This document shows positions 10,566 through 59,226 of a stretch of DNA of 64,000 nucleotides, in pieces. Numbering within the stretch: the stretch's first letter is position 1; every line of letters begins with the position of its first letter. The stretch comes from Psammoneis japonica (taxonomy: Eukaryota), in contig QPGO01000014.1 in NCBI GenBank assembly GCA_008632985.1, positions 758,289 to 822,288 on the forward strand. The letters run 5' to 3'. The notes under the pieces were generated by a model. It saw only the letters and a program-made list of their open reading frames with translations. It ran no database searches and was not told the DNA's origin. A program made the translations under genes and the position numbers.

Positions 10566-13500
10566 AAGGCGCATAAGGTTAATGACTAGAGTTTCGTTAC
10601 AGTAGGGTATTTCATTCATGGTGGAGCTGAGGGATGGCCAGGTGTCAGCGCCAAAGACATTGAGGATATCCCCTCTTTTTATGAAGCTACATGTACACTC
10701 TGAAAGATTTGAATCTGCTGTTTTAGTCACGTTCAAGTCGGGCCCGATTTGCAGATTTTCAAGTGGGTGCGCAGCAGGACGAAATGCATGCGGAGAAGAA
10801 CGTGTTAAAGACTAATGCGAGGTCGCATTTCACGTCGGGACGGTGGATCACGCTGTCGCTTGGGTGGATCTGGATCGAGGATTGAAATTTATTTGAGTAT
10901 GGGAAATGAACTTCAGTCACGGTCCACTGCATGAATGGCTGAAAGATGTTAAACTGCAAAGTTGACATTGTGTTACCCATGGGTCCCCTTTGGAGGAGAG
11001 GGGAACACTCACATGACCCACATTCGCTCCATGGGCCCGCCAGGAGCTAGCAGTAGAAGCATTGGCCACCAGCTGCTGCCAGTGGCTGACACTCTCAACT
11101 CTACAACACTCTCTTACAGCAGCAGTGGCAACAGAGAGGGACCCCCATTTGACATTGGCCTCATCATTTCTGAGACAATGGCAGTCCCTCCTGATGAGCC
11201 CATGGTGTGAACATTGGTTGTCTGAGTGTTCCCCAACTTTCAGCCATTTGCGCGGTGACAAAACATGAAAAAATGAGGGAAACAAAACTCTTTGCTCTCT
11301 TGTCCAATGCACTGTTGTGTCGAGAATTGCTGCACTTGCAGCAACTTGGTTCGAAATGGCTCTCATTTTCTTTCCCAAACCTGAAGCACTGTGCATTGTT
11401 TTGCTTGGCTCATTGCCTTGAGTCTTTTTCTTGTTGGCTCTGTTTCCCATGAAAAGATTTGGTTGGCATTTGATGCTCTTAGGGAGGAAAGCAAGGTGGC
11501 CATCAGTGAGGAGCTCCAACCAGACCTGGTTGTTGCAAAGAGCACAATGAATGGTGGTCACTTTGAGCTCACCCAGCGACATCTTTCATCATCATGCAAG
11601 GCATCTCTCATCAAGGAAATCAATCAGGAAGAGTTGGACCACTTCACGTTTGGCAAGTTGGCTGCCTTGGATGGAAAGTTGCACTTTCATGGAAAAGATG
11701 CAGTTCACTGGGAAGAACTTTGGGTCTGTGATCCTCATCTGTGACAAACCAACATTGAATGGTGACAGAGCAACAGAACCTCAGGTCACTGAGGGGCCAA
11801 GGAAACAGCACATGGAAACAATGTGTTGCATGTCTGACATGCTTTGTGATTGGGCAAAAGCTGCTCCTGGATGGGACAAGGTGCCATTTGCTGCAGACAA
11901 ATGGCAGAACGCTTGCTTTGCTTCCAAACTTTGCGACAAATTTGGTCTGAACCATGTCAACAAGAATGGCAAACAGGCGCAACTTTTTGAGCACTTTGCA
12001 GTGGCCATGACTTTGTTGAACTAGTTGGATCCCATCACCAAACTGCCTGCATTGCTGGGATGCCATGCAGACAACTTGAATTGCAGAAAGAAGAACTGCA
12101 ATGCTCTCATGTGCATCTGCTTTCATGTGTGCATTGTGCATTGATGGTGAGTCATTGCTTTGGGTGTGCCTTTCATTTTTGATTCATGCAATGTTCATGC
12201 TCTGACGTTGTCATTGAGTTGTTTCCTGCAAGGCAAATGGCACCAAATGTGTTCAATCAGAAATGGTTGTCGTTGCTGCTCTGAGTGCTTCACTCGTCTG
12301 GCTGGCAGTGACAAGACGCTTTGTCAGATGTTGGGCTTCTTCTGCTCCTTGTTTGAAGAGCATTGCCAAATTGATGCATGGCCATTTCCTGCTGCCATCA
12401 CATTCTGTTGGGGTTCACCATCCTTTTCCCAACATGAACAAAACAGTGTGGGAAGCAGCCTTTGCCTCTGCCACACTGCACATGCTGCAGTCTTTTCCAA
12501 CCTCCATGGAGCAAAAATTGTGAATTGCTTCTGCCAGTGGAATGGTTGACCACCCCTGTTCAGATGTGTGAAGTGCACAAAGGATGGGTGAAGAATGGTC
12601 TTCCCACCACTGGCAATCTCACTGAGGCACTCGTCAATGAATGCATGTGTCATTGTGGTGGGTTGTTGTGTGGTGACAGCAGCTGCAAACGTGGCAATTT
12701 GTTGTGCATCATTTGCTCTTCTCCAGTCCATTTGAGCAATCAAGCTTCTTGCGCACTGTGACAAGAAGAATGATGTTCCAAATGTCATTGGTGTGGCAGA
12801 CATTGGTGCACAGCATTTGGTTGCAGTCAGCAGTGTTGTCACCATGTGCAAGGATGTGACATTGGCAGAGCAAGCTTGGGTGTGTGCATCCACACATGTG
12901 CACAAGGTTGTCAATGAGACATTTGGTGTTTAAGCTCCTGTGGCAAACGAGTGTCACAAAACATTTGCTCAACTCACCGGCACAAATGCAGCAATGGCAG
13001 AGAATGTTCCTTGTGAAAAACTCAGAACTCTTGGGGAAAATGCAGACTGTGTGATGTCCAAGCTTGTCAACAGTGGCATGTCTCAATGGATTCAGAAGAA
13101 CAGTCACTGTCACATGCCTGACACTGGCTGTTTGCCATGATCAATCAATCTTTGCAATTGAAAATGGCACTGGGATGGAATCCTTTAAGAAGTGTCATTC
13201 AGATGAAGGAGAGGAGCATGATCTGGTTTGTCAGCCAGTGGAACTTCCCCAGTGCAAGATCAACAACAGACTTGACACAGATTGTCCCTGGGTGCTGGGA
13301 AAGTTTGTGTCCTTTAAACCAGTGGAAGTTGAGACTTCCAAAACATCCGTCCTCCCAGAAGATTGCAAGAAGAACAGGGCTGGAAAGAAGAAGAGTGCCA
13401 AATTCAATGAAAACAGCCACTCTTGCATGGGAAGAAACTGAGCATGGGAAGCAGCTCTTTGAGCAAAGGCAGACAGGAATTCCAAACTTGACTTCAAGAT

Positions 13501-14589
13501 TGACAAATGTGAAGAGGATGACCAACCTTGCTGCACCAGTGTCAACAAAGATCTCAAGTTAATGCTGGCTCTTGGCAGACAAAGCATGACGTGGAACTTG
13601 ACTTGTCCCGACTTGGAAAGCACATTTGGAGCCAACCAATCAGATGGCACATGTCAAATGACAGAATTGGTGAAGTTGGCCATGACCAGTCTTGGTGCAG
13701 CAGCTTCTCAGAAAAGGAAAAGAAGGAAATGCCAATTGGTTCATTGTGCAGCCAATGAACAATTTGGTTGGAATTCAGTTTTTGCTGCCACTGTTGCTTC
13801 TGTGCAATGAGATTTTTTGCAGAAGAACTGCAACAATTGTGTCTTGCCATTGGAAGGACCAGTGTCAGAAAGATGTTGAATTCTGCCAGACACATTCACA
13901 AGCCAAAGCCGCTGTTCTTCTGAAAGCCATCTCATGCCGCACACCAGAAACTGAGACACAGTCGGGAACAAAGATGGACCCAAAATGGGCCACAGATTTT
14001 CTCCACCAGATTCAAGAATGAATGTTTTGGGCAGAGATTTGTTGCACACATGCACTGCCACAGGTCATGGCAAAAACTCAAGAGCAGCAAATGCACTGCT
14101 TGGCATGCTGTTCTTTTAAGGCAGATGCCGGATTTTGTCTGTCCCTGCTGACAAAATGGATTTGAGAAGAATGTGGCAAGACTGCTGTTTACAGAAGTTG
14201 CAGTTGAAGCATGCAACTGCCAGAAAATTCTTGCCAAGGATCAAGCAGTTCAGTGTGATCATGTTGCTGACAATTGCTGTGGCATCCACAGGAATGTTGC
14301 ACAGCTGCCTTTGTAATTTGGCAAAGTTGCCAGTCAGTGAGGGAGTCAACAACATTGCGATCAAGATTGTTGGTCATCTCTGTCAATTGGCACTGTTGAC
14401 AACTTTGCTCCTCTCTGTCAATGTTTGCTTCTGTTTGTCTGTGGCTGGGAACACCAGGTGGCAGTGCTGCAGTGCCACAATGGATGATCTGCAAGTCATT
14501 CCCAGCTTCATTCCATTCAAGCCCTTTCTCCCAAGCAATGTCGCAGGCAGCCAGCATCAGCCAATGCAGGACATTGACGTTGATGCATT

Positions 14590-15410
14590 GCATTTTACCA
14601 CGCAGCTTTGAACGTCTCTCTTTTGGCTCTGTCACCATCAAATCCACACACAAATGCACAGCAGGTCCAAGGTTGCAGGAAATCAGATGACACAAATCTT
14701 GATCCTGATTCTCGATTGTGCTCATTGATCTGACAAAAAAGATTGTTGGTGTGACCAACATGTGTCGACGTGTTGTCTTTCACTGAAAGCAACAAGTGCA
14801 CAAATCCCGATTCATCCCTGGGATGATCAAAGTCTTTTGGATGACATGGGAAGCATCTTAAGTCAAGCTCCAGTAAAGTCGTTTCACTCCCTTGAAATTT
14901 CTCAAGGAAGTGGCAGATGAAATCAGTGCATTGAGTGCGACGGAGGAGTGTGCCAGCCAGAGCATCTGTGCTGTCTTGTCAGGCTCACCAACAAACATGG
15001 TGTCTTGTCCACATTGTGTTCTAGACAAGAGGACTGCAATCTGTTCTTTCATCCAAAGAGAGTGCTCCTCCTTCAACAAATTGACCCCTGTCACCAAAGT
15101 TTCTGTTGTTTGACCAATGATGGAGTGACTTGTGCAAGCAACTCAATGTCACAAGCCATGTTGAGAGTGTCAAATTTGAAGTCCGCCTGGGAAAGAATGT
15201 GTTCTGGACAGAACACAAGGCATTGAAACTTCTCTCCATTGCAATTGGAGAAGCAGGGATTTGGAAGCACCTTGAGGAGGAAGACTCTTGCATCCCTCTG
15301 GGGCAACTGTCACTTGAATGGGTTCCATGTTGTGCTGATGGCATGTCTTCCTTGCACACAGCAGCAAGTTGCTTGGCACGGCATTTGTTGTCTTTGTTGT
15401 GCAACACTTT
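14590..15410 (-). mobile_element. Helitron-like remnant: PIF1-type helicase C-terminus followed by GIY-YIG endonuclease
   Basis: Minus strand reads GFVHLLLS...STHVGHTNNL...INEHN..SGS...LQPW (GIY-YIG with Y->H). Upstream LWMKEQIAVLLSRT...TMFVG resembles helicase motif VI. Confidence 0.6.
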
Positions 15411-15489
15411 TTAAAAACTGCACCAGGGAAGAAGAGTGACTCCAATGGCATCTTTGATTCTTTGGACAAAAAAAAAACAAGCTCTGGTT

Positions 15490-18400
15490 TTAAGTGCTGT
15501 TGCACCTTTGCCCAGCAACACCGGCGCCAGCTAACCCACACTTCCAGTGCACCCTGCGAGGGATGAGGCAGAAGATTGTGCAATTGGCCGGACTTGGCAC
15601 CCCCGGATGGGGCGCCTGACGGAAACAGCTGAAGATGGTGCAAGTGCCTCTTTTTGCCAGGCGTTTGGCTTCTTTCAAGCTTTCTTTGAGTCTTGGGCGG
15701 ACCACAGAGATCCAATTTTGAATCCTTGTTGCAGCGAATGTACGGTGTTCTTCGACTGAATCCAGCAACACACCTCTGTCTTTTGCCAAGTGTTCCTGAT
15801 GTTTGTTGTAAATCGCCATTAGTTTGGCTTCCACCTTTCTTGTTGCAATGACTTACGAGACTCCATGTTGTGTCCATTCACCAGCTGGTTGTGCTCCTCC
15901 CACAGTTCCCACCAGCTTCTCCACACGCAGGAACCTGTCTGGACTGTCCAATCTGGTGGTTGTTTGTTTTCCTTGTGACATTGACGCAAGATGCCCGAGT
16001 CGCGAAGACAGCCAGATTGAAGGAGGTTCCACATGAATGATTGTCTGCCGCTGAAGATCTGTCGCCATCCTGTGTCGGATTGAGCTTTCCACAACTCCTT
16101 GCATCTACAATCCACGTTGTCCAAGATGCATGATTTCTTTGTTAAACCATGCCTGCAGCATCTCCAATAGAAAGTCATGGAGAGCAGGCATTGTGTCCAC
16201 TTTGTCGCAGCATTTTTGCAGGCCTTGTAGAAACTTTCTCCTCCACTGTTTGTTGTTTGGACATCGTAGGATGTGATCCCCATCTTCCATTGGATGATCA
16301 CATGCAATGCACTGGTGGGGCCGAACTGGATCATGTCTGTGTGCAATTTTGTTGGCAGGTGGCAAATCACAGACCAATTTGACCATGTTGACGTGTTGCT
16401 TTGAGTGGCGTTTCACTGGGACTGCGTGGGCTTTCCAATCAATTTGATCAACAACTGAAGGGTGCCATTGGTTGTGCTTGACAATGTGTTCAATCAGTTG
16501 GGGAGCAGTGGCTGCGCATCTGATCTGTTTCTTGTAGTTTGTCGTGATTGCACTGCCTTCTATCTTGAGGTGGGAATGGCAATGTGGAAAATGTTTCACC
16601 TGCACCGCATCATGTGGACAGTGTTCTTGACATGCTCCTGCCAATCTGTCAGCACGGATGTCAACACGAGCATTGAGAGGCAAAGTGTGAACAGGGGGGT
16701 GCCTGTCTTGATGTCCTTTGACCCAGAGGACAGGAGGGAGAGCAAGGTCCTCTGAATCCGAAAGCCGCAGCAGAGCTTGCTGGGTGTGAAGGATCTCATT
16801 CAGTGCGCCCCAGTCTGGCGATGGGGCATTGGCCCCATGATGGCTGACATGAAAATTGTGAGTGGCTTGAACCTCTTCATTGAGATCAATCGCTGGCAAG
16901 GTAGATGTCAATCAAGACAAACAGTCAACCAAAGCCTTGTTGTCACAATGGACAACTGCATCCAGAGGAGCATTAATTCGACAATGTTCACACAGTTGAA
17001 AGATGAACCATGCAATCAATGGAATGCCGCAGGCCTCCACTCGGTGTGATGACAGTGTCTTTCCAAAGACTGGTCCTGCGCAATCCACTGGTGGAGTCCC
17101 GTCTGGTGTGATTGTCCAACTGAAGGCAGCTCCCTCCTGGACAGACCCGTTGCTGCCTGCCATGAGAGCAGACAAAAGAAAATGCTGGATCAGAGATTGA
17201 GAAGGAATGTGCAGTGCCAACTCATCAAACAACGTTGATTCCCAAGATGACAACTGTTGAAGAGTCTTGAGAAATGAATCTGGCATAGCGGCAGGAGTTG
17301 AGGACGTCAATGAGGTACGCGGAATCTCAAATTGCCATCAACCGTCCTCAGTTGTGGACACTTCTACCGGACAGGAGTCTTTGGAAGGGGTTGGCACTGT
17401 CTCTGTTTCCACCATTGAATCTGTTGTTGTTCCATTGGCTTGAAAAATGTTGTGACCATCCAAAGTGCCTGCATGCAAATGATCTTCAGATGGAGAAAAG
17501 CATGCGGTAGATTGCACTCTCATCTGTGATGGTGGAACCAGCCAATTGCCCAAAGGCTCCTTTAATCAATGTGTTCTTGGATGACACAAACTTGAGAGCA
17601 GAATTTCTTCCACACAGTCCAGGCTCTTGAACAAGGTTTGTGTTGCTCAATGTCATTGAGAGTGATGGTGCTGCTGTGCAGGGAAGGATCTCCTTTCACT
17701 TTGGACCCATTGAGAGTTGTCCCATCTGAAAGAGTTACATCTGAAACTGATGAGGCCTGCAGATACAAGCGGCAACAGTTGGTCCAACGGATTTCCCTCA
17801 TGGAGAAAGTCTGGGACTGCAATGCCACATCCATCAAATGTTGATCATTGTCTTGTTGAAGTGGGAGTGCGCTGTTGTGAGATGAGAACACTTGGCCATT
17901 GATCTCATGCAAAAATGCTCAAACTGACGCAAACCAGCGCAATTCCATGTGAGGTAACACTGTCTCCACGTCCCACAAGAAACTGTCACCAGTCCCCAAA
18001 TTCAGCTGAATCCATGCCACTGCAATGTGGAGAAGCTTGTGCGGCTGATCTTCCCCGAGTTGCAACTGTGCAACTCCTCTCAAGTGCTTTGACAATTGCT
18101 GAAGTTGAGCCACCCCTTGTTCAACATCTAACAATCAAAAACCTCCTCCTCCTGAGGACTGTGGTCTGTACAGTGTGAGCCTTTCGGTGTTTCTGTTGCA
18201 TCCACATTTGGCAAACATTGTCCACATGGCCTTTTGTTGGACCTGTTGGAGTTCTTTTGGAAGGAAATTTGAGCCAGCCAGCACATGTGTCATCAAGGAA
18301 AGGTGACACGCGTGACAATGCCGCCATGTTTTCATTCTATCCAGCAGGCACGACCTTAGAAACAAGGCAACGGCATTGCTCTTTTTTTGCAATTTAGGAG

Positions 18401-19870
18401 CCATGCAGTGTCCCAGGGTTTTGTGGGGAGCACAAGCTGACAATTGCTGACTGCACCTGGAGGTGGTTTGGTCAGCAGAAAAGATCTCTGACTTGATGTC
18501 GTCATGGCAGGGGCAGATGTGCGGCTCACCATGTTCTGTAAAGTCCCATTCAATGGCGTGGAAACAACACTTTGGCAGCTCCAATTCTTGTCCTGCAGCA
18601 TCCAATGAGTCACACCACAACTGGTCATCCGATTGGAGAGACTGGGACAACTTGAAAGCAGAAGGCTGAGGACTGGCTCTGAAATCATTCACTTGCTTGG
18701 AAGTGTCGTCAACATGACCTCTGTTGTGGACTTGGATGTAAAACTGCCCATCTGGCGTTTCAAAGAAAGGAGCCACAACAGCTTCAATGTCAAAGATGTC
18801 AAACAGTCTGCTGCGTGAAGTGTTCCAGTGCAAGGGAGAATTGCCACTGCATCTTTGATTCTTTGGACAGATGTTTTGACACCATGGCCATGCAGCTGGC
18901 TCTCTGATGTCCTTCCAGTGTGGACTCTTCATCCTGAGCCATGACAGCGATGCTTGGCACATGGTCAGTGTTGCGTGTCTTGTTGATGAGCATTTTTTCT
19001 GCTTGGAAGATGGCATTCCACCTCCTGAACACCTGGAGAGCCAAGTCCAGAATGCCGGGGTTATCCCAGCTTGGAACATGAAGTGAAACAGACTTGGCAA
19101 GACTTTTAAACTCCAACATTGTCTCTTGTGTCAGGTCTGTTGGAAGAATTCTCATCATGTCTTGCACTTGTTTGTGTGGTTCATCCAAAGAAGCTCTCAC
19201 AGATTGCTTCAACTGAAACAATGCAAAAGAGGTCAACAAAAACAGAGACAACAGTGGAGGACAACCTTGAACTGGGGGCAACTGCATGGGGTCCATCGTG
19301 GATGCAACCAAAATGCTGCCCATGAAAGCATTCAATCTGCAAATGCAATGCAGCAAGACATCCAAAGCAGCAAGCAACTCTGCCAACACCTGTCAAAGTT
19401 TGTCTGTCAACAACACATCCACATTTCCTTCGGTTTGCCATGTGGTTTCATGATGGTGATTTCAGCTTGTCGTGCAAGGGACCTGTGACTGGGCCTCAGT
19501 CAAGACCATCTGTGCATGTGCCGTCCTGCCAAAGCCAATGCACACTCAGCCATGTGAGCTGTTGACAAAGTGGTGAGGCCACAAGACATTGCCTTGATGC
19601 CCGCTGTCTCCACTCTGCAAAAAGTTTTTCAACACCCCGGACCACCCGCAATGCAGACAGATTTTGTGGCGGTTCTAGTGTTTGCAACACAATCATCTCC
19701 AAACACAACATCTGCTGCTTCATTGTTCATGGAAAATGCAGAAAAAGCACACACCCACAGCTGACTTGCTCCACAGTCAACACACAGCAGCACACTTGCC
19801 AAATGTTTCATCACAAATCTTCAACAGGTCCCACATCATTCCATCATTTTCCTCCCTAGACTGAAAGTTT
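15490..19870 (-). mobile_element. Decayed non-LTR retrotransposon (RT + RNase H + C-terminal Cys/His motif)
   Basis: RT motif GHVDDT and LELPKC..H. CRLYLQ..SVSDVT..DG. RNase H motifs GSNGSV..GAAFSW, SSHRVEACG, VHCDNKALV, WVKGHQD, NARVDIRADRLA. C-terminal CIAC...EDGDHILRC. Broken by stops and frameshifts; ends approximate. Confidence 0.85.
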
Positions 19871-21465
19871 CACAAACCAAATTTCCCAAATCAACAAACA
19901 ATGTCAAAAGACTCATGCCATGTGAAAGATCAGTCCAGATGGGCCGCTGCAAGCTCTGGCAAAACAACAGGCAAAATGAAAATGAGAGCGGGACAAAAAG
20001 CCAATTGTGAGCCACTGGGACACATGTCACAGCACACTCACCAGGGCACCTTCCAGAGAAAGTTCTGTGTCACCCAGCCAAATTTCATGGCCCCAAGCAT
20101 TGCCAGCAGTTCCTGCATGACAGACAGTGAAGACAACACCATTGCAGAGCAGGAAAAAAGGGCCATTGTAGACCAGATGCATGCACGTGTGAACCAGACA
20201 CACAAAAAAAAGGCTCGTGAGGTGCACAACTTTTGCAAAAATGACTCTAAAACTCAATCAATCACAACACACTCACATGATTATCTTCTTTGGAGTGTGC
20301 CAAGTCTGTCTGACAAATGCCAACATGTTGTGAGCATCCCCAAGGCTCCACTGCATTGTTTTGTTTCCACAGTGTGCACTTTTCAGAAATTGTGACGCCC
20401 AAAAAATGGCACGCCACAATGACGAGCCAACCAAAACCCCAAGAAGCAAATTAATGGGATCACAAGTCCATCGAGGTGTCAACAACAGTTGCACCAAAGG
20501 ATGCAGAGTGGGGCGAAGTGCAAAGCTCCCAAATGGATGCAAAGTGCAGCAGTGATCTTCAGTGACCAGGAAAACAACATAAAACAAGAAAACACAGAAA
20601 AAACTTACCTCGGCAACGTGTCGACCATTCAGATGTCACCCGCACCGTCACGAGTCGATGAACTCAACCGTTTGCACCGTGTGCAGCACAACCAAAGCAC
20701 CCCAGGAGACCGAACCAATGTGTCAACCTCTTTGTGACAACAGCAAAAAAAGATCCCCCCCACACTGCGACATGCATGGCCGTTTCTTACGGAACGACAT
20801 GCCAAATCGGGAGCGTTTGAGTGGAATGAAGGAAATGAAGAGGATTCCTCGTCAGGCGTCCTTGTCAAGTTTGTCCCAAAATGGACTTCTGCTTTCTCTT
20901 GTGTCCACATCAAAATGGAATTGCGTCCTTGTCAAATTCCACCGTGTGCACAAGTTCCAGTGCAATCCCACTGTGCACGTCACATGGAGCCATTGTCGAT
21001 CCCGTCTGACCGTGGCCACCAAAATTTTTCACCACGCGAAAAAAAATTTTTTTTGTGGAACGAACTGCCACGGCGACATCTCAACCAGTTCCAATGGGCC
21101 GTTGCGGCCTCTCCATGAACCAATGCGGAGCGACGCAGACATCTTCTCTTCCTGTGTTGAGTGGTGTGTAGCAAGAGGACACATCCAACATGGAGATGCA
21201 TTGGTGCTCGACACAATGCTTCGATTCACCTTCGCCATCACGAGTCGGAATCTCTCGATGAGTGTCTTTTTCGATGAGTTTGGCATCTTGCTTCTATTCC
21301 TGCCAACTCACCCCTCGAGTTGAATCCCATAGAGAAAATGCGGCTTACACTAGCACACGATGACTCAAAAGCTGGGACCTTCACTGTCCGCGTCCGGTGC
21401 GAGGTGCGAGACGAGCAGCGCACGCTGCTGCAGCCAAAATGGATTCGTTCATACATGATGACGTT

Positions 21466-22052
21466 TGTCATGTGGCACAAGGCCCATTGTGGGTGATTGT
21501 GGTGATTTTAAGAGTCGTTCATGAAAAGTGAGACTATAAAAGTGTAAAATTATGAAGTGAATTTCTGGAGCGGTGATCTCGCGGAATGTTCTTTCGATTC
21601 TTTCTTTTCCAGAGAAATTCTGTTCTCGTTATGTAGGAACGTTCCTGGGTTCTTCTTTAAGTGTGTGTCGTCTAAGGGAACGTCTTGGGACTTCTGAGGA
21701 GGTCACGTATGGTGTCCGAAAGTGTCACGGGAAAAATCGAGAGATCCGATTCGCTCTTCATCGTTTCGACCGTTTTCTTGTGAGAATCGGATTGGCTGAA
21801 AAGGAACTTGAAGTTCGGCTAAGAAATGTCTTCTCGATTTACTTAGGAAGTGACACACGTGTCCAGTTGTTTACTATCGCTTTCCGCATGTGTCCGGTTG
21901 TTTATTTAGGAGGAAGATGTTGGACAATTGTTCATGTAGCATGCATGTGTCTCTTGATGTATGTTCACGTAGATGTACATGGGGTTCTGTCCGTAGTTCT
22001 CTATTGTTCTTTATGACGTCTCGAAGTGTCGGGTCATGAGCACGACGTGACA
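21466..22052 (-). repeat. 3' LTR of Gypsy 1 (mutated copy)
   Basis: Direct repeat of 27494-28079 with 9 substitutions and 1 indel by manual alignment. Confidence 0.97.
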
Positions 22053-22075
22053 CGCGCCTCCTCCAATGAATCGCA

Positions 22076-25000
22076 TCAGGGAGAGAAAGGAACGAGACGC
22101 CGCGCATTGACGGTCTCGAGGTAATTTCCTTTTTGGATGATGACGGTGCCATTGGACTTTACTTCATGTGTCTCGCATGGGCCAAGTCGGCGTAAGGCGA
22201 GTTTGGATCGACGAGGGTTGTCGTTTCGGAGAGAAACAAGGTCTCCCACTTTGAAGTCATGGTCGAGTCGCCGAGAGTTTTCACGCGCGTCATCTGCTTG
22301 CGCTTGTTGTCGGCGGCGAGCACAAATGGTCGGCCAGTGGACGTTGCATTGTAAGGGAAGGATCACATCTCTTCCAAAAGCAAGTTGGCCGGCAGAGGCT
22401 TGCATGACGGCATGCACCGTCGAATTTGTCGCCCAAGTTGCTGAGGCTGTTGTCGCATTCCACGGATTCGGTTGATTAAATGCGTCGGGATCATCGACTT
22501 GTTGGGCCCGCATGCAGCTCCACAAAACATCGTGGGTCCGTTCAAGCAGTGAATTCGCCTGTGGGTTCCGTGCTGTCACAGGTTTAGACTTGATCCCACA
22601 AGAAACTGGCAGTTCTTGAAATTCAATGCCTGTAAATTCCGCACCGTTGTCGTGTGTGCAATAGACCGGGCGCGGAAATTTGCATGACCACGCTTGGTCA
22701 AATGCTCTGGCAGCTTCCAGAGCTGAGACTGTGGAGATCTGCTCCACACCAAAACAATGAGCAGCTGGATCTGCCATCGTGAGGGCGGTTGACGTCAAAC
22801 TTCGTCGGTTGACACCGGCACCAGTGGCAAAGGTAATCGGTCCGACAGTGTCGACTGCTGCCTGCAACCAGGGGTCAATCTCAAGGGCTTGTGTGTCCTC
22901 AAGAGGTGTTTTTCCATACACTCTGCGGTTCTCTTTTGACTGTAGACAGGTCTGGCATTGGTCTACCTTGGTCTTGACGTCTCGGGTCAAACCTTGCCAA
23001 TGACAGCACTGCCTGAGGGTCTTTTCCATTCGTTGGATACCTGGATGGCGTAAATTGACATGATGCCAGTTCAACAGAGGTGCTTGTAAAGTTGTGGGGA
23101 CAACAATCTTGTCCTTAAAAAGGACTGGGCGCAGGTGTCCATCCTGCACCATGCAACTGCAGTCAGACAATTCTTTCCGACTCGGGTCGGTTCGAGTAAG
23201 TTGCAATGCTTTTTTGCACGTAGCATCATCTTGCTGTGCTTCAATAATCGTGTCAAACGAGATAGGACAATGAGTGTTATCGTCGTATTCAAAGGCGAAA
23301 CACTCTTCCAGCGTTGGATCTGCAGCTGGCATCTCTGGGTCGCTAGTCGTGGTCGCGGCACGTGATAAGAAATCCGCGAGCACATTTTTTGCTCCCGGCA
23401 GGTAAAGAATCGTGGGACCAAATTCCTCAACGATCAGTCGCCAACGACATGCGCGGTCTGACTTGAAATTTGCAAAGGTCAGATTCTTGTGATCCGTGTA
23501 GATCGTGATCCTATGACCCAATAGGATGTCACGATACTCTCGTAGCGTCATAACTGTCGACAGTAGTTCTTGTTCGATAACTGGATGTCTTTTTTGTGTG
23601 TCGGAGAGTTTGCGGGAGTAGAACGCTATCGGGCGCTTGTCTTGAATGACAACGCTTCCCAGCTGGTATTTCGAAGCATCGGTGTAGATGTAGAACATCT
23701 TATTGAAATCAGGGTAGGCAAGAAGCGTCTCGGTAGAGATCCGTCTCTTAATTTCTTGAAACGCTTGCTCGTGTTCGGGTTTCCACTCGAACTTGACCGC
23801 TTTCGAGGTCACACTCGAAAGAGGTGCCAATAGATGGGCACGAAGTCGCCACATCTCGCGATAGAAGTTTATCATTCCAACAAAACCTCTGAGTTCTTTC
23901 TTTGTTTTGGGCGAAACCAAATTCATAATCGCATTGACTTTCTTGGGTTGCGGTTTGATTCCGTTTCTAGCAACAACAAACCCTAGGCACTCCGTTTCTA
24001 GAGCGCAAAAGAAAGTTTTTCGCAAGTTTACTCTAAAGCCTGCATCATTCAAAAGCACAAATGCTTCGCGCAATTGGGCGAGGTGATCATCAAAGGATCC
24101 CTTGCCAATAATCAACAAGTCGTCGATAAAAATCAGAACGAATTCCAAGTGTCCTAGCAAGTCAGTCATGACTTCTTGGAATGCATCTGGGGCTGGTGCA
24201 AGTCCCATTGGTAATCTGCAATGAGCACATTTGCCGAACGGCAGCACAGCAGTCAGATGCTGCTGACTCTTCTGGCTGATCCGTATCGTAAAAAATCCCA
24301 TGTTCAAATCGATCGCTGTAACATGAGCACAGCCATGCAGCTTTCGGAGCATGGTTGGTGTCAAAGGTAGAGGCCATGGGCGTCGTTGCATGCGTTGATT
24401 TAACAGCCGAAAGTCGGTGACAAATCGGCAATCACCACCTTTCTTCGGCATGAACATTGAGGGAAATCCCCAAGCTGAGTCTGAGATCCTTCTCAGAACT
24501 CCTACTGGCATAATCTCTCTGCTTCTCCTTTTGCCATGTTGCAGTTGATCTGGGGTATGCTGCAAGGTCGGCACATGATGGGCTCGGTGCCGGGCTTAAG
24601 CTCAATGTTGACCGGTGGTCGCTTGACACAATGTCCGAGCTCTCCTTGCGTGAGACTGGAGAAGTCTTCTAGCAAAGTGACAAGAGCTTCACCTTGCTCT
24701 CTCGACAAGTGCTCGGGCACACACTCTTGTAAGTCCTCTGTGGGACTGTGGTCATTTGGGCGAATGGCTTTGGCCTTACGAGCCGCCATGAGCTCTTCTT
24801 GCGTCGTCGGTCGGTGCCAAAAATCCTCGGGATATCTCATCGGAAAGGACAAGTCATCCCAAGCAATGACTTTTTCCTGGAAATCAAGCTTCATTCCAAG
24901 CTTGAATGGAACATCTCGTCCTGCAACAGCATCATAGATTCCTTGTGATGATGAAACACAAAAGCACAAATCGAACTGTCTGTGCAAGGATGTGTCAAGG

Positions 25001-25245
25001 AATCGACAACGAGTGAGTGCGACATGAGTTGTCTGATGGGTCTGCGCAAACAAGGTCTCCCATCTTGTTGGTGCTAAGGTGGCCTCATCCAGTGCTTCTT
25101 TTGAGAGCACATCTCTCTTTGTTGTTGTTCGACTGCTGCCGCTGTCGAGTGAGGCGAGTGGAACATTGTTGCTTTTGTCTCGAGTCCCATCAACTGGATC
25201 GAGTAGTTGAAGTCGCACGATGCATCGGGGTTCTTCCACTTGCAT
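22076..25245 (-). pseudogene. pol: Gypsy 1 pol (protease, RT, RNase H, integrase), frameshifted near 24540
   Basis: ASLDSGSS protease; FVTDFRLLN, RLPMGL, FIDDLL RT; YTDASKYQLG, AFYSRKL, YTDHKNL RNase H; HPG..R, DTVGP, HDNGAEF, NPQAN..LER integrase. Confidence 0.93.
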
Positions 25246-27323
25246 TTTTGAGGCTTTCGTGCTGCGTGTCTTCTCGGCTTCTTGTTGCCACTTTGCTCCT
25301 CTTCTTGTTCTCTGAGATGGTCAGACATGCCATCTCCAAAGACTTCTTCTTCTTGGTGGAACCAAGTACGATACTCTTCATCATCTAGGTACACTACACC
25401 AGGTTCACAGTAAAAGAAATCATGATCACTGGATGCACTCAAATGCTCGTAACCATCACTCTGAGGGTCTGGTTCAGGCATTCGTGCTGCTGGTTGTGGC
25501 TCAGGCGCCACGGCTGGCATAAGTTCATTCGTCATATAGATACTCTCTTCATCGGTATCGGACTCTGGAGCCGCTGACATTTTCTTATCGGACTCGCTAT
25601 TCATGAGTTCGTCTGCCGATACAGCTCGCTTCGTCTTCGAGGCAGTTGCTCGATGAGAAAGTGAGCGACATTGCTCATGTGTGTAGGGTTCGGTGTCTTC
25701 GGACGTTTTCGAATGTCCTTCTTCTTCTTCGAATTCGTCTGGGTCACCTGGAACATATAAGTTCCTTCTCGTAGGATATATGCCCCCATGAGGGAACACT
25801 ACGTAGTCGCAATCGTCCATTCCATCTGGATATAATGCTTCTATCAACTCCTGGGCGTCCGTGCTGTTGTCATGCTCGAAAATTGATGATGTCAGAGATG
25901 CGCACTCATCCGCGCTGTCTGCTGTAGCCTCATACTCGTCATCGGCATCTTCTCCAAAAGATGACAGCTCGTCCATAGACGACATACGTAAGGTTGTCGA
26001 CGATACTGTTGACATACTACTAGCGGTACTCCACAAATCATCGCTGTCTGACGATGTTGATCCGCTGTGCGGCACGAATTCCGGCATGCTGGATGCATCA
26101 GTTGTTTCTGCTGGGTCCATGGGAGGTCTCTGTCTCTGTTGCAGCTCAAAGTCTTCTGGCAACAGAACGCAATAGTTCTCTTCCACGTAAGTATCATATT
26201 CTCCGTCTGATTCTTCATAAGAGTAACTCGTATCGTCTTCTGGTATCTCAAGTCCGTCTTCTTGTTCATAAGATTCAGGTTCAGAATCATCTCTTATGCT
26301 AAGTTGTTCCAGTTGTTCAGCTGGGGCTGAGTCTATACTGTTGTCCGGGTTCTGGACTGGTAGAGCTTCTTCTGGCTCGTGTACGGCACGTATTTCTTGC
26401 CGGTTCGTTCGGGTACGTCCTCTCTGTTGACCATAGCCTTGAGGACGGTTCCTATCACGCTGTAAGTTGGCTTGGTATCGAGTAGGATATCTATGTGGTT
26501 GGTTGGGAGGAGCTCCGGCGTTGTTATTGTTATTATTGCTCGGTCGTGTCGCTCGGTCGCCTCCATGTCCGTATGCGGTTCGGTAGCCGTGAGTGGGGAT
26601 ACGTCTCTGGAATCGCCGTTGGTTGTTTGACAACCTTCTCTCTTGTTGGGCCTTCTTCTTCTGTAGGAAGGATTCAATGGTGGAATAGTATGTCTCCAAG
26701 TCTGCCATACCATACTCACCTCTGTGTCCGACGGATAGTTGGAATCTCTCTCGCCAATCATCCGGCACAGCATGCTCTGCTGCATAAGTTAACTCTTGGT
26801 CCGTGAGAGGGGCTCTCTCTTCTGCAGAGCCTCTCATGTAGGGTACTAGCTCATTGATTTCCGAAATTCTGGAGGTGAATTCAATGAAGGTAGTTTCTCT
26901 TGGCTTGCGTATGGAGCGCAAGTACTGCTTCTGCACTGCCGCTGAGTCTCGAGGAAGCAGTCCAGCAGTGACTGTCTCTACTGCTGTATCAAACTGTTCA
27001 GGGGTAAGTTCTTCTGGATTTTCAACTAGAGCTCTTACCGCTCTCTGATATCGGTCCTTGATGGAGCCTCTGGTTAGGCATAACATCTGGCAATGAAGTA
27101 CTGGTCCTGTTGTCCAGTGCTTGACCGTTCTTAGCTCATTAAAGTCTTTTAAAAAGACTAGGTACTTCTCCTTGATGGAGGTATCACACTGATGGATATA
27201 AAATGCCACCGTGTCTTCCGGTTCTCCCGGGTCTGGCGCAACCTTGTACTTGATTAGGCTCGCAACGTCGTCCGCTACTTGGGGGTACGACTTGTATAAC
27301 TTCACAATCGCTTGACTAGTCAT
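25074..27323 (-). CDS. gag: Gypsy 1 gag-like ORF with long acidic C-terminal region
   Basis: 749-aa ORF between the 5' LTR and pol. QKQYLRSIRKP...F.SRI.EIN matches the gag of Gypsy 2 (LQKRCLRRFMRKP...RAVEIN). Confidence 0.85.
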   Translation of the reverse strand: MTSQAIVKLYKSYPQVADDVASLIKYKVAPDPGEPEDTVAFYIHQCDTSIKEKYLVFLKDFNELRTVKHWTTGPVLHCQMLCLTRGSIKDRYQRAVRALVENPEELTPEQFDTAVETVTAGLLPRDSAAVQKQYLRSIRKPRETTFIEFTSRISEINELVPYMRGSAEERAPLTDQELTYAAEHAVPDDWRERFQLSVGHRGEYGMADLETYYSTIESFLQKKKAQQERRLSNNQRRFQRRIPTHGYRTAYGHGGDRATRPSNNNNNNAGAPPNQPHRYPTRYQANLQRDRNRPQGYGQQRGRTRTNRQEIRAVHEPEEALPVQNPDNSIDSAPAEQLEQLSIRDDSEPESYEQEDGLEIPEDDTSYSYEESDGEYDTYVEENYCVLLPEDFELQQRQRPPMDPAETTDASSMPEFVPHSGSTSSDSDDLWSTASSMSTVSSTTLRMSSMDELSSFGEDADDEYEATADSADECASLTSSIFEHDNSTDAQELIEALYPDGMDDCDYVVFPHGGIYPTRRNLYVPGDPDEFEEEEGHSKTSEDTEPYTHEQCRSLSHRATASKTKRAVSADELMNSESDKKMSAAPESDTDEESIYMTNELMPAVAPEPQPAARMPEPDPQSDGYEHLSASSDHDFFYCEPGVVYLDDEEYRTWFHQEEEVFGDGMSDHLREQEEEQSGNKKPRRHAARKPQKCKWKNPDASCDFNYSIQLMGLETKATMFHSPHSTAAAVEQQQREMCSQKKHWMRPP

Positions 27324-27493
27324 GTCCTCCTGTACTGTATAAGTATTATCTTGAGGTAACGCTCTAAAGTACTATTCTTCAGTTCCGTCGAACTGGGGGC
27401 TACGTACGTAGGCTTTCTTCGCCTTAAGTAGAATGCTCAGTACTATGCTGAGAGGCGGTATTATTATAATGATACGCCACTGTTTGATCAAAA

Positions 27494-28079
27494 TGTCATG
27501 TGGCACAAGGCCTATTGTGGGTGATTGTGGTGATTTTAAGAGTCGTTCATGAAAAGTGAGACTATAAAAGTGTAAAATTATGAAGTGAATTTCTGGAGCG
27601 GTGATCTCGCGGAATGTTCTTTCGATTCTTTCTTTTCCAGAGAAATTCTGTTCTCGTTATGTAGGAACGTTCCTGGGTTCTTCTTTAAGTGTATATCGTC
27701 TAAGGGAACGTCTTGGGACTTCTGAGGAGGTCACGTATGGTGTCCGAAAGTATCACGGGAAAAATCGAGAGATCCGATTCGCTCTTCATCGTTTCGACCG
27801 TTTTCTTGTGAGAATCGGATTGGCTGAAAAGGAACTTGAAGTTCGGCTAAGAAATGTCTTCTCGATTTACTTAGGAAGTGATACACGTGTCCAGTTGTTT
27901 ACTATCGCTTTCCGCATGTGTCCGGTTGTTTATTTAGGAGGAAGATGTTGGATAATTGTTCATGTAGTATGCATGTGTCTCTTGATGTATGTTCACGTAG
28001 ATGTATATAGGTTCTGTCCGTAGTTCTCTATTGTTCTTTATGACGTCTCGAAGTGTCGGGTCATGAGCACGACGTGACA
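27494..28079 (-). repeat. 5' LTR of Gypsy 1 (TA-retaining copy)
   Basis: Direct repeat of 21466-22052. Confidence 0.97.
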
Positions 28080-29167
28080 CGTTGCCGCGGCGTGCGCTCT
28101 ATGTGGCTACATAAGCTAAACTAGATCACTACTAAAACGACAATAGATTGCAATTTTGATTTTGACAACTAGAGTACTAGAAGATATCAATCTACTTAGC
28201 TCGCTAGTCCACTCTAACAATCTTGTGGCCTGGATCGCGGCTGCAGCGGCGTCTTCTATTCAAACACAACATAGCACTCTTTTTCTCCACACTGTCAATG
28301 AAATCAATGAAACAGCTACAAGCTTTTCATATTCCATATTGTCATCGCAGACTCCCACATTCAATTTGCAATATCTTGAATACACATTCACTGCATTGCT
28401 ATTGGAAACATCAATGCATGAGTCTTGCTTCCATCAAAAAACAAACAATCAATCCCAACACATGATGTCCAAATCAGATCACTCGTCACCAGCGACATCA
28501 TTATCGGGCACTACATTGGATCCTTGGGAAAGCCCAAACTCGCCCATATCATCTCCTACCTCCTCGTTGATCGGATCGAACTGCTCCTGTACGGTGCGGG
28601 CTCTTTCCTCCTTTTCACGCTGCAATACAGCCCATTCCCAGGTTCACAAACTTATTCAACACATAAAAAGAGATTGTTAGACAGCGAGTCATGTGGGGAG
28701 AAACCTGTTTGTAGCACAAACAAACGACTTTCGTCGATTTCACGGCAAACAAACAACAATTTGCACATTTTTTGCCAATTCTCTCTCTTGGAACATACCT
28801 TGCTAGTTCTTTCGCATTACAGCTTTGTTAATCATACAAAGACGTTTACAAAACGCACCTGGACGTCTCTGGGCATTGCCTGGTTGCCAAGAAAACACAC
28901 CGAAAGTTGATCTGATAGCATGATTGTTTGATTCGTTCCCCAAAAAAAAATCTTTTCTTCTTTCGCTTGCTTTCGCGCGTTGAAAATTTTTTTGGTGGCC
29001 ACGGTCAGACGGGATCGATAATAGAAGTATTAATACCTAGGGCCCTACCGGTAGGTACGGCGGTAGCTGGATTGCAAACACACGATGCATTACCAAACTA
29101 TTGCGCTGAGGCAACAAAGAAGAGCCAGCTTAGACTCTCTTTAGAGTATAGAGGGCTGTTCTACATC

Positions 29168-30517
29168 ATGTCGTCCAATCCGTCGTTGTGGACGCTGTCG
29201 TGTTTGTTGTTGTTGTTGTCAACAGCATCAGTGTCCGCCTTCTCAACGCCAGCAAGTGCATCAACATCGCGGGTCGACATTGGTCAAACTGCACCCCGGA
29301 ATATTTTTGGGATGCAAGAGTGGGCCAAAACGAGTGGCGTTGAAAGTTGCAAAGGCTTTCGGTTAACCAGTGATCCTGTAGATGAACAAGATTGGTCAGT
29401 TTCGACCACAAAATCGTTGTCGGTCAATGAAGTGGTCGTTACGGTACCATCTCAAATTATTCTGTCCAGTAATGACGTGATTGACACACAAATCAATTTA
29501 CAACAAGCAGAGGTTGTCCTAGAAGAGAACGATTTGGAAGATCAAATTCCTCTTTTTCGGTTGTATGTCAATTTGCTGCTACAATATGAGCTTGGAGATC
29601 AATCTCCATGCTTTCCATGGCTCAATTCTTTACCACGACGATTTTACAACGGTGTAATGATGACATCGGCATGCTTCGAATGCTTACCTCCTTATGTCCG
29701 TTACATCGCTGAGAAAGAATGTTACACGAGTCAGTGTTTTCAACAAGCTCTTCAATACGCCGAAGCAATTTCAGAAATGACAATGTTGAACACAGACTTG
29801 CTCAACTGGGCCTATTGTGTTGCCGTCACACGATCCTTTGGAGTCAACACTGGTGCTGACAACGACAAGACATGTCGAGTTATTGTGCCCATGGCAGACT
29901 ATCTTAATCACGGGAGTTTTGAAAACGAAGTTGAGCTAACCTTTGATCAAGATGGGAACTGCATTGTCTATGCTGCGCGGGATGTATCTCCCGGAACGCC
30001 TTTACGACTATGCTATGGAGATCCCACCAATCCGTCCATCTTTTTTGCCACCTACGGGTTTCTCGATAAGTCCTCCCCTGCCACATTTTGTAAACTAATG
30101 CATTTACAACAAGAAATGGCCGAGTTGAAGCTAGACTTCTCGGATTTGCTATTCTACAAAGACACTGGGGAAATTTCCCCTCAAGTTTGGGATCTTCTGT
30201 TGTATTCCATCCTGAAACAAGAGCAGCAAGTTTCGGAAGAAGATCTACTACAAGGATTCTATGACGCATATGCGGCAGATGATGTTGACACCAAGAATCT
30301 CTATCATCAACACTACTTCCAACACACATTGCAGGCGCTCCACGATCACGTCGATGGGATGCTGAACGAACTAGAGTCGCTTTCGGAACTGGCAAAAACT
30401 TTGGACATTGCGAAACACCCCCGTCTCTCTCTCATTAAACAACACAATGATTTTGTCAAAACTACATTTCTGAAAGTCAAAGCCAATTTGAATGCCATGT
30501 CCTCTGGTGATCAGTAA
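29168..30517 (+). CDS. Plastid-targeted SET-domain (Rubisco LSMT-like) lysine methyltransferase
   Basis: Signal peptide ending VSA|F (ASAF-type). WAY..A.TRSF, IVPMADYLNH and LCYG.......FATYGF SET motifs. Single exon. Confidence 0.9.
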   Translation: MSSNPSLWTLSCLLLLLSTASVSAFSTPASASTSRVDIGQTAPRNIFGMQEWAKTSGVESCKGFRLTSDPVDEQDWSVSTTKSLSVNEVVVTVPSQIILSSNDVIDTQINLQQAEVVLEENDLEDQIPLFRLYVNLLLQYELGDQSPCFPWLNSLPRRFYNGVMMTSACFECLPPYVRYIAEKECYTSQCFQQALQYAEAISEMTMLNTDLLNWAYCVAVTRSFGVNTGADNDKTCRVIVPMADYLNHGSFENEVELTFDQDGNCIVYAARDVSPGTPLRLCYGDPTNPSIFFATYGFLDKSSPATFCKLMHLQQEMAELKLDFSDLLFYKDTGEISPQVWDLLLYSILKQEQQVSEEDLLQGFYDAYAADDVDTKNLYHQHYFQHTLQALHDHVDGMLNELESLSELAKTLDIAKHPRLSLIKQHNDFVKTTFLKVKANLNAMSSGDQ

Positions 30518-53568: not shown

Positions 53569-54451
53569 TGTCGGGCTCGTTGAAAGTTGAAATGCAATCA
53601 GGCGAAAAAGAGAAAAAACAAAAGAAAAGAAAAAGCTGCAAAACGAACAAACAGCTGAAACAGAAAGAAAAAAGAGAAAAAGCTGGAAAAAGACGAAAGC
53701 CACACCTTAATCTGGCTCCTCATCAGCGGCACTGGGCAAAGACTCGGAGGATGGGGACAGGGTCTTCAAGTTCTTTCAGGACAGGATCAAAGCTGTGTTC
53801 TTTGTGGAATTCAGCCCGTGCACCAGTGTCCTTTCTTGGCAGTGCTGGCGCATGAGAACACGCAGCTCCTCCTCGCTTCTTGTTTGGCGCCTTCTTGCTG
53901 AGCAGAGTGGAGGTCACAGCAGAAAGCACCAGCCATGGCAGGGTTCACAAGTGCCAAGGCTGCATCTGTGGGTGTGTCAGGTCCAAAGCAAGACATGAAC
54001 TTGTGAGTGTTCAGGTTGCATGAGCACGAGGCATCATCTGACATGTGTGTGGTCAACACCAGGAGGGCCCGGCAGATGGCAGATGTGCCCCCCTTGAGTG
54101 CCAGCAGGCGTTGGTGGCGGCATTGGTGCAGGGCACTCATGTGCAGGATGGCAGCCAGTGGTGGTGTGCTCTCAGATGTCAAAACAGTGGGTGCCGGCAT
54201 TCTGGTGGAGCAAGGCACCAGCAAGCTCCATGTCGGAACATTGGTGGTTTGTCCCCACGGGTGTTTGCTGACCGGGTGATGAGGGTGCGGCAGATGGATG
54301 ATGCCAAGAGTGGGTGCAACCAGACTGCAGGTGCTGGGCTGCTCAGAATGGTGGTCACAACAGAGTGCAATGGAGCATTTGGAGTGAGTGGCAGCAAGTG
54401 CAGAACTTTGGTTGAGCCAGGCAGCTGCATTCTGCCAGTGCCAAGCCCTCC

Positions 54452-54885
54452 TGCCCTGTGCATGTGCTGGGTGCTGAAAAAGAAGATGTGTTACGACTTT
54501 GTCGTTGTGAAAATTATGAGCTAGTTTAGAGTAGAGAAAATGGGATCGTGCGAACAGGGAATCTTGCCAAATCCCTGTTCGTTCGCATTTGGATCGCATT
54601 AAATCGATCGTGCGTTCGCATTGTGGATCGTGCGAATCAAGCCATCACGCGCCATGCACGAGTGATGTCATCGTGTGGAATCACGCTACCATCGTGGGCC
54701 AGACGACGGGCCAGTGTGCTTCACATGGACGCTCTCTTAGCATCCTTCTGGAATTGCCTGAGACCTGGAGCCACGCCCTCCTGTGGTCGTGCTTCCCAGG
54801 TGCGTGTTAACAATGCTGCATTGCCACGTGCAAGAGGCTTGTGCACGGTCTCGCCGTGTTGTCTCCAGCAGCGAGGCACACTGCA
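54452..54885 (-). repeat. 3' LTR of Gypsy 2
   Basis: Direct repeat of 59321-59752. Confidence 0.95.
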
Positions 54886-54929
54886 CACTCCCCCATGATC
54901 AGGGCCGTCAAGTGACAGGATGTCTTGCT

Positions 54930-57900: not shown

Positions 57901-58145
57901 GTGGTCCAGTTTGTCTCAGCCGTTGAATGGCTTCGCAGACATTTGCAGCATCGACTGTCAAGCAGGGTGCTGCCAGCGCCACTGTCTGGCAGTGCCTCAA
58001 TGGTTTGAGTCTTGCCCTTGCCATGTTTGGCATTCACAGCCACAAACAAGATTGGAGTGAGATGAGTCTTTTTAACTCGTTTGCGGGATTGGCCCACAAC
58101 ACGTGTACGATGGTAATTCAGTTGTTCATTTGTGCATTCATCCAA
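54930..58145 (-). pseudogene. pol: Gypsy 2 pol, frameshifted near 56500, with pervasive Tyr->Cys/His
   Basis: ALPDSGAG, DVIIGRD, DFRELHK, LPMGL, THLDDLL, AFYSRKL, DHKNL, LCHPG, IDPATGWFE, DRGTEF, NPQANA.VE. Confidence 0.95.
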
Positions 58146-58189
58146 TGTGTCAAAACTGCCTGCATCGTGTCGGCCCCCTTCTCAGGCAT

Positions 58190-59226
58190 CCGAATCTTCG
58201 GAATCACTTAAGTTGAGGTCGCGGAAGTGATCAAGCTCCTCCTCACGTGCCTTGCGCTTTTTCTGAGCGTTGGCAAAGAACTCCTCGACCTTCGATCCGA
58301 TGAGAGTGTCAATGTCTTCCTCATTCCGAGGTTTTGCATTGGGCTTGCCGCCTCCATCATTGGAATGTCCAGTCTTGACACATTTCACGTGGTGCTTGAG
58401 CTGACGGCAATCCTCCGTATGATGTCCACAGTTAGTCCCGTGCAGCACACACTGACTTCTGGGTGTTCCGTTGGGTCGTGATCAACGACTCAGGATTGTC
58501 CGTTCTACGTCCCCGCTCACGTGGAACCTTAGCATGTTGGTCCTGGTTACCTTCGGCAAGCTCGACCTGCTCGATGCGCTCGCAGAACTGTGCAAATTCG
58601 GCAACAGCATGTGCCAACGGGTCAAAATTCTGCAGCGTCATGAACTTCTGCCATGCGTTCGGCACACCGCACTCGAACACATCGCACAGTTCGTCATTGG
58701 GCAATGGTGCTGGTGTTTCTCCATCCTCCGTCACGGGTGGAAACTGAGAGACACAGCCGTTAATTTCAACAGCCCTCGCGACGCAGTCACGAGCAGAAAC
58801 CTCTGCGGGCTTGCGCATGAAGCGCCTCAGACAACGCTTCTGCAATGGCACCGCCCCATGTGGGAAGATGCTTTCCTTTAGCTTCGCGACGCATGCTGCG
58901 TACGTGGCGTTGGTTTGGGATGCCTGCTTGTCAGCGGCATTGTCAAATGACGTCAGAGCATCGCCCTGCAGTGGGTCACGCACAAGGGCAAATTTCGCTG
59001 GCCCGGTCGTGATGTTTTGTCCTTCGTGCACGCGATCCACGTTGCGCAGAAAGATTGGGAGTGTCTCGCATGTAGCCGCAGAAAGGTGCGGAATGCCCAT
59101 CTCGTGCGTTGGACCATCTGGATCAGCAGGGTTGTTACGTAGCTTGAACGTCTGGCACTCGCCCTGCTGCAGCTCTTTCTTCTCCGGCCGTGTGAACGGA
59201 ATCAGCGGCTCAATCCGCTTCTTCAT
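58190..59226 (-). pseudogene. gag: Gypsy 2 gag (frameshifted; C-terminal CxxHGxxxxHxxxxC knuckle)
   Basis: LQGDAL..F, LQKRCLRRFMRKP, VPNAWQ, FCERIE; C.LHGTNCGHHTEDCR in ORF 58182-58448. Confidence 0.85.

Follow-up and report, generated by a model that had tools for sequence, protein, structure and literature searches.

Why do the two ends of a single DNA transposon differ only at their TA dinucleotides, and in which direction did they change? The question is raised by an element at 20993-29021 of a 64,000-nucleotide stretch of the Psammoneis japonica genome (contig QPGO01000014.1, positions 758,289 to 822,288), here called the window. The element is a dead, non-autonomous IS630/Tc1-type transposon, split by the insertion of a Gypsy retrotransposon. 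Its left end (20991-21020) reads CATTGTCGATCCCGTCTGACCGTGGCCACC and its right end (28994-29023), reverse-complemented, reads TATTATCGATCCCGTCTGACCGTGGCCACC. Only 2/30 positions differ, as TA>CA and TA>TG; the stretch has just two TA steps, and each carries one of the changes. The chance of two differences landing one per TA is ~0.009, and ~0.001 if the type of change must also fit. The right end, which faces a host gene, has TA followed by TTA; the left end, which faces a block of repeats, has CA followed by TTG. Both changes, on the repeat-block side, had been noticed in a preliminary description of the window and are confirmed here. With coordinates refined, the terminal inverted repeats (TIRs) begin at 20993 and finish at 29021, and the ends consist of the following features.

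20991..20992, + strand: left target-site duplication (TSD), TA converted to CA (at the ends of the family, TA 6/16, CA 6/16, TG 4/16)
20993..21020, + strand: left TIR core, 28 bp, imperfect to ~21043; the native TTA start is now TTG
28994..29021, - strand: right TIR core, TTA start intact
29022..29023, + strand: right TSD, TA intact

The preliminary description had also taken the element to be of IS630/Tc1 type and its TA duplication to be converted as well. The DDE_3 domain of a sister copy, the TIRs and the diverging flanks agree with the assignment, and the TSDs of 43 ends, presented below, make CA and TG derived states. In all likelihood, a regional mutator that acts after insertion and changes A:T to G:C almost only at TpA rewrites repeat DNA in this genome, and the TAs of the TSD and TIR are ordinary substrates for it.

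An ancestral sequence can seldom be known unless an outgroup is at hand. The TA duplication of a transposon is one of the exceptions, and it separates this process from the repeat-induced point mutation (RIP) of ascomycetes, which joins the same three dinucleotides in reverse. A degenerate end pattern was searched over the genome and matched 16 ends of the window's family; the reversed control matched 0. Five paired copies are found among these ends, with the 28-bp TIR core at both ends, and in 16/16 the flanks diverge outside the TA, CA or TG. The states of the TSD and the TIR step were TA/TA at 5 ends, TA/CA at 1, CA/TG at 6 and TG/TG at 4. Three further DDE_3 families added 12, 13 and 2 ends, the last from family E, which gave one end type; families B and D were left out because their ends could not be placed. 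Over the resulting 43 ends from four families, the TSD was TA in 22, CA in 11, TG in 10 and anything else in 0. TA is thus the ancestral state and the change followed insertion; the direction of RIP is excluded.

Individual copies of the window's family lead to the same conclusion. Duplications are mismatched in three paired copies, the window's (CA..TA), C51 (TG..CA on the + strand) and C73 (CA..TG), and the last two need a common TA ancestor. In the copy C46, TA is followed by TTA at both ends and the duplications match as TA; those of C3 match as CA, which is uninformative. Left-type ends are intact in C46 and C12, and the right-type end is converted in C73. The family is therefore not natively asymmetric with CA or TG on the side seen in the window, an arrangement that would have undone the preliminary description; one copy is symmetric and both end types occur in both states. 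Family A (C97, C107, C182, C119, C161, C18 and C349; L141-L152) begins with TTG at 12/12 ends, 10/12 of which have a TA duplication, and the three other families start with TTA. Family A may have had its TTG start natively, or may have acquired it by a conversion long ago and remained mobile.

Since a single transition can turn TA only into CA or TG, what the TSDs establish is the direction and rate of the change; evidence that it is specific to TpA is given by the TIR pair and by pairs of long terminal repeats (LTRs). The LTRs of the window's Gypsy element differ by substitutions of which 9/9 are at TA (p ~4e-7 given A/T>G/C). Among other Gypsy LTR pairs, L052 has 19 TA and 2 CG changes, L053 has 15 TA and 1 CG, and L051 has 0 TA changes and 1 transversion. 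When A>G changes in five Gypsy copies were sorted by the preceding base, AA>AG was found at 5/2565 sites, CA>CG at 8/2315 and GA>GG at 6/2560 (0.2-0.35%), and TA>TG at 30/390, the last an undercount. The transitions are therefore A:T>G:C almost only at TpA, and they occur on both strands. Each copy was mutated separately, as outcomes are shared at chance-like levels: at sites converted in both members of 10 Gypsy pairs the outcome was the same in 49-61%, and in families A and C sharing at such sites matched expectation. A 3' pyrimidine is favoured, with conversion of 0.39 for TAC, 0.42 for TAT, 0.24 for TAG, 0.18 for TAA and 0.06 for TTAA. At this TIR, TTA>TTG exceeds TTA>TCA 10 to 1, in the same direction as the 3' context (p=0.06 vs the context expectation).

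Where conversion falls is best followed along the locus itself, whose remaining parts are listed here.

11500..20990, no strand: TA- and CG-depleted repeat block facing the converted end; its final 0.7 kb consists of high-copy repeats (78 matches)
20993..21465, + strand: left half of the DNA transposon, converted at 8/14 TA-polarised sites and more strongly towards the repeat block; the C46 copy is 93% identical
21135..21345 (limits approximate), + strand: frameshifted C-terminal remnant of a DDE_3 transposase (IS630/Tc1-type, DD38E clade)
21466..22052, - strand: Gypsy 3' LTR; compared with the other LTR, conversion at 9 TA sites
22076..24595, - strand: Gypsy pol frame (reverse transcriptase (RT), RNase H, integrase zinc finger), heavily converted
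25074..27371, - strand: long Gypsy open reading frame, gag by position only (without a Pfam match), mostly unconverted past ~25500
27494..28079, - strand: Gypsy 5' LTR, unconverted, 33 TA
28080..29021, + strand: right half of the DNA transposon, nearly unconverted, still TA at 43/50 TA-polarised sites
29168..30517, + strand: host SET-domain gene facing the intact end, its ATG ~145 bp from that end (PF00856, E 4.5e-4, just under the cut-off)

The Gypsy insert (21466-28079, 6.6 kb) is flanked by a 4-bp TSD, CGTT, at 21462-21465 and 28080-28083, and the sister copy C46 is an empty site for it. Without the insert the transposon is ~1.4 kb long, and relative to the C62 copy ~0.7 kb upstream of the transposase remnant has been deleted. 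TA density is 5.7 TA/kb in the left block at 11500-20990 vs 41 TA/kb at the SET-domain gene on the right, and the window as a whole alternates between blocks with ~3.6-5.7 TA/kb and three genes with 31-41 TA/kb.

Comparison of family ends facing genes with those facing repeat blocks, proposed in the preliminary description, was made over the 43 ends with the flanks scored by their TA content. Conversion goes with a TA-poor flank: converted vs intact ends have a median of 2 vs 15 TA per 400 bp (p=3e-7), and only 1/21 ends facing TA-rich DNA is converted. When the inside of the element was scored as well, the TSD was converted at 19/20 ends with inside and flank both TA-poor, 1/6 with a poor inside and a rich flank, 1/2 with a rich inside and a poor flank, and 0/15 with both rich. 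Together with the densities above, this confines TA loss to foreign or repeated DNA. In the left half of the window's element, the first five TA sites are all converted along with the TSD, then 3/9 (p=0.03 for this post-hoc split). C46 is its mirror image: the left half is 13/14 intact, the right half is 28/46 converted beside an inserted repeat, and both ends are intact. The TSDs are likewise both intact around converted interiors in C76 (34/58, 59%) and C182 (29/61, 48%). The suggestion that ends are special targets is thus not borne out; they show no excess of conversion, track or lag the interiors, and are passengers, often the last sites reached.

The polarity towards the repeat block stands as a link with the flank, better read as protection next to genes, but the neighbouring block does not always account for it: in the Gypsy copy L051 a converted pol lies between two intact LTRs, and in L053 a converted 3' LTR lies beside a TA-rich flank. 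Within Gypsy elements the TA cells lost were 266/520 in pol, 52/140 in the 3' LTR, 76/605 in gag (48 of them in one copy) and 3/150 in the 5' LTR, and CpG loss runs parallel at a lower level (pol 93/980, gag 13/545, 5' LTR 1/150). The Gypsy pattern is thus partly intrinsic to the element. We also observed that the five young Gypsy copies (window 21466-28079 and L051-L054) all have a converted pol with gag and the 5' LTR mostly spared, and that the edge of conversion is sharp, at ~25450-25510 in most.

On these results a mechanism can be proposed. The data show changes in repeat DNA that came after insertion, turned TA to TG or CA on either strand, copy by copy, and stop near genes; a mutator of this kind converts an end that lies inside the mutated domain, and spares the TA of the TSD and that of TIR positions 2-3 when they face TA-rich gene DNA. 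Guidance may come from silent, probably CpG-methylated chromatin, as CpG loss has the same distribution, and the process may nucleate inside elements and spread. A host activity on double-stranded DNA, held back near genes, is the most likely agent. Its chemistry might be adenine deamination by an enzyme of ADAT2/TadA type, in line with the proposal of the preprint discussed below, a guess to which we give about even chances. Any damage to transposon mobility would be incidental, partial where the TSD is concerned and perhaps greater where missense changes arise.

Several observations sit uneasily with this account. The right end of C73 is converted although its flank is TA-rich (13 TA/400 bp), intact TSDs of C162 and C182 face TA-poor flanks, and in an older Gypsy copy, L055, the polarity of the LTRs is reversed (1 vs 5). 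Poor and rich sides were separated at 5 TA per 400 bp, a value set post hoc, and a TA-rich flank is only a proxy for genes; moreover, an element's two ends do not count as independent observations, and searching by pattern is biased towards well-kept TIRs. When the left flank was used to look for the empty insertion site of the DNA transposon, 78 repeat matches came up, and only the window itself spans the junction, so that reading the TA as a duplication and not as the edge of the TIR draws on knowledge of the family. Finally, a survey of deaminases brought out no candidate enzyme: the 9 matches to PF00383 in the genome resemble an ordinary deaminase set, and the TadA-like matches, at C38, C26 and C79, are all below the curated cut-off and of a kind of tRNA enzyme that is universal. 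The C79 locus (L129:313-1785, G000:C79) encodes a 491-aa frame that starts with a deaminase-like domain (TadA model, E 2.3e-9) and continues in a long C-terminal part, which by its motifs we take to resemble a 2-oxoglutarate/Fe(II) oxygenase.

The same regional process could instead arise by error-prone synthesis or repair in methylated heterochromatin, for example G inserted opposite T in repair at deaminated 5-methylcytosine, or by a mispaired modified thymine, without adenine deamination. A TA>TG change read from the opposite strand is TA>CA, which leaves the damaged base, A or T, unreadable from the sequence, and CpG loss co-localises with TA loss; this alternative is a serious one, though we think it less likely. 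Polymerase eta prefers WA, but AA>AG is at background here (5/2565); there is no excess of transversions; and in a locus described at the end (L017) TA loss is near-complete with CpG intact, so that nearby CpG decay is not required. A quite different view would make CA or TG ancestral and TA the product of a RIP-like C>T change, or the two ends natively different. CA>TA and TG>TA are the classic changes of RIP. Diatoms also carry a RID-related methyltransferase, DNMT4, of unknown function (PMC9998398). Nevertheless, the symmetric copy C46, the two end types found in both states and the mismatched duplications refute this view, which is very improbable; TA stands at gene-facing ends and is lost from repeat blocks, and where one copy has CA and another TG at the same site, the ancestor must have been TA or CG, CG being found at 0/43 TSDs.

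An artefact of assembly or sequencing is hardly credible at all. It is true that one contig (run X1, depth 42.7) has A at 20986 where the assembly has G, i.e. TA vs TG at 20985-20986, 5 bp outside the converted TSD; this is possibly an allele not yet converted. But the changes are context-specific, lie on both strands, are bounded by domains and recur in dozens of loci, and contigs as long as 581 bp agree with the TA-poor block apart from 0-2 differences, although these probably come from the source sample and are not independent. A contig over 21107-21434 differs at 5 places, all equal to the C46 copy, with allele and paralogue indistinguishable. Among the contig matches listed, from one sample, none is shown over the TSD or TIR positions.

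The regional mutator that we favour leaves the question of whether its effect on ends is its purpose. The preliminary description proposed that altering TIR ends and TA sites could immobilise such elements and remove their future targets. On this functional reading, TpA specificity would be a defence tuned to IS630/Tc1/mariner elements, locking them through the TSD and the TIR tips. In Hsmar1, symmetric 5'-TG flanks delay second-strand cleavage, although much product still forms (PMC2800235), and Mos1 reads three terminal bases of the transferred strand sequence-specifically (PMC4344528). TIR position 3, changed here, falls within those bases and could matter for mobility. Among the ends at which the TIR TA is converted, an intact TA duplication remains at only 1/19, and as copies were converted independently of one another, there is no clear case of movement after conversion. 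The first count of shared left-half states for C73 and C51 was 11/12; under stricter criteria the figures were 8/10 (p=0.08) and 6/8 (p=0.19), and C73 and C531b share 9/10 (p=0.015, one of 22 pair tests).

Much speaks against such tuning, which we regard as quite improbable. Ends are converted no more than interiors and often later, LTR elements, which have no need of TA, are hit equally hard, and co-conversion of two TAs one base apart also predicts the 1/19 pattern. The element of the window already had a 0.7-kb deletion and frameshifts, and family A indicates that a tip reading TTG need not prevent mobility by the transposase that belongs to it. Sleeping Beauty requires TA at one end only and Tc3 is moderately affected (PMC4344528); Hsmar1 is only delayed. 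In mariners the T adjoining the repeat at its 3' end is critical, whereas the A after it matters little (PMC4344528), so that, from the geometry of the strands, TG read outside-in would alter the critical pair and CA the dispensable one. The CA type makes up 11/21 changed TSDs, the window's included; the outside-in TG type accounts for 4/10 in the window's family and 10/21 overall, as expected without preference. Immobilisation is therefore plausible only for the outside-in TG change, but the window's own change is the near-harmless CA, with the other end intact, and the case for immobilisation directed at ends is not made and is in part contradicted. Future targets are indeed removed, though only locally: 56/128 bins of the window (44%) hold 114/1345 TA (8%). 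Such loss would empty harmless landing sites and leave targets in and near genes, and its protective value is not obvious.

A comparable process has been described in the rhizarian alga Bigelowiella natans, in which TpA-restricted hypermutation of integrated DNA of nucleocytoplasmic large DNA viruses and virophages was measured de novo in two viral regions, at a rate raised ~1000-fold and active in only some lines (10.64898/2026.01.13.699255). The enzyme is given there as unknown, with ADAT2 proposed, and the idea is extended to transposons. As in P. japonica, A:T>G:C changes at TpA only, giving TpG or CpA, are confined to foreign or repeated DNA, and TpA-depleted coding sequences of B. natans are enriched for DDE endonuclease and RT domains, much like the targets here (10.64898/2026.01.13.699255). 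The present case differs in that the host is a diatom, that the signature is read from DNA and LTR transposons, and that conversion is near-complete over kilobases, with sharp edges at genes, and is polarised by TSDs and LTR pairs. The targets that we examined were DNA transposons, Gypsy elements and other repeats, in place of the viral regions of B. natans; no search for viral inserts was made. The main text of the preprint lacks the terms 'diatom', 'target site' and 'inverted repeat' (10.64898/2026.01.13.699255), and literature searches, with subscription journals mostly outside their coverage, returned no report of TpA loss in diatoms or at TSDs.

RIP resembles the process in being repeat-focused, dinucleotide-specific, post-insertion and active on both strands, and in leaking into flanks (PMC9998398), but its chemistry and direction are opposite: RIP makes TA from CA or TG, and stop codons with it. 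In fungi it depends on RID/DNMT4 and on the pairing of repeats during the sexual cycle. By the genetic code, TA>TG or TA>CA cannot make a stop from a sense codon. The fungal signature, C>T at CpA producing TpA in repeats, was absent from the repeats analysed here, where TA is lost, not gained. A TpA-directed A-to-G mutator of DNA, so far described in one preprint on a rhizarian alga, has rewritten transposons across a diatom genome, and the converted ends cleanly mark the polarity of a mutational process that has hardly been described, here in a new lineage and with new targets. Should an adenine deaminase prove responsible, nature would have its own equivalent of the engineered adenine base editors, and eukaryotes a second type of genome defence by mutation. 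It is conceivable, but doubtful, that diatoms and rhizarians share a host-encoded, chromatin-guided adenine-deamination defence, a 'reverse RIP', whose TpA specificity was selected for rewriting the TA duplication and the TIR tip, both of which IS630/Tc1/mariner transposases have to read, so that these elements are locked and gene-facing DNA is shielded. In such genomes TSDs and TIRs will be misread when repeats are annotated, and LTR divergence will give inflated copy ages.

The TA duplication, short TIRs, DDE_3 domain and D-38-E spacing are those of the IS630/Tc1/mariner group, from which the window copy departs in being a deletion derivative that carries a Gypsy insert. The DDE_3 domain (PF13358) was found in the sister copy C73 (35.6 bits, above the cut-off of 28.6) and, below it, in C62 (26.7 bits); a Pfam scan of the window's own frame at 20583-21320 gave no DDE_3 match, a 30-residue fragment likewise had no Pfam match, and homologue searches with the decayed C62 frame gave none. 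The open frame nearest to the remnant's family in the genome is a DD38E frame at C217, with 43-55% identity. Its nearest relatives are DD38E transposases, with named diatom matches in Thalassiosira, Skeletonema and Attheya; of 120 relatives examined, 88 of the 104 in which the motif was found have D-38-E spacing. Intruder is an animal DD38E family. The motif of the clade is mostly P(T/A)RSPxLNPxE and not YSP, and the idea that a conserved YSP tyrosine had been erased was rejected, as relatives have Arg there (TRS/ARS); the CAC/TGC codon pair at this position more likely reflects CpG decay than TA conversion. Family B includes, at L096 (G000:C36:16242-19490), a 456-bp inverted repeat with 97% identity.

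A neighbouring host kinase has named homologues in pennate diatoms, e.g. Seminavis, Nitzschia, Mayamaea and Fistulifera. A second Gypsy element in the window, at ~54450-59620, has an LTR pair with 7 CA/TG doublets, 5 TA losses and 5 CG losses in 433 aligned bases, which indicates that both LTRs were mutated independently. In the second half of L017 (G000:C12:206400-215400), 1-2 TA vs 26-39 CG remain per 500 bp, TA erasure there being far ahead of CpG decay. A 1.47-kb repeat (L014:3320-4790; G000:C46:328119-329589) has 16 near-full-length matches including itself, at 88-100% identity. Past base 290, the 3 copies compared have only 3-5 TA apiece in the body, and any two of them differ by 1 CA/TG doublet; the repeat was therefore multiplied while nearly TA-free, with TAs kept in the first 290 bp only.

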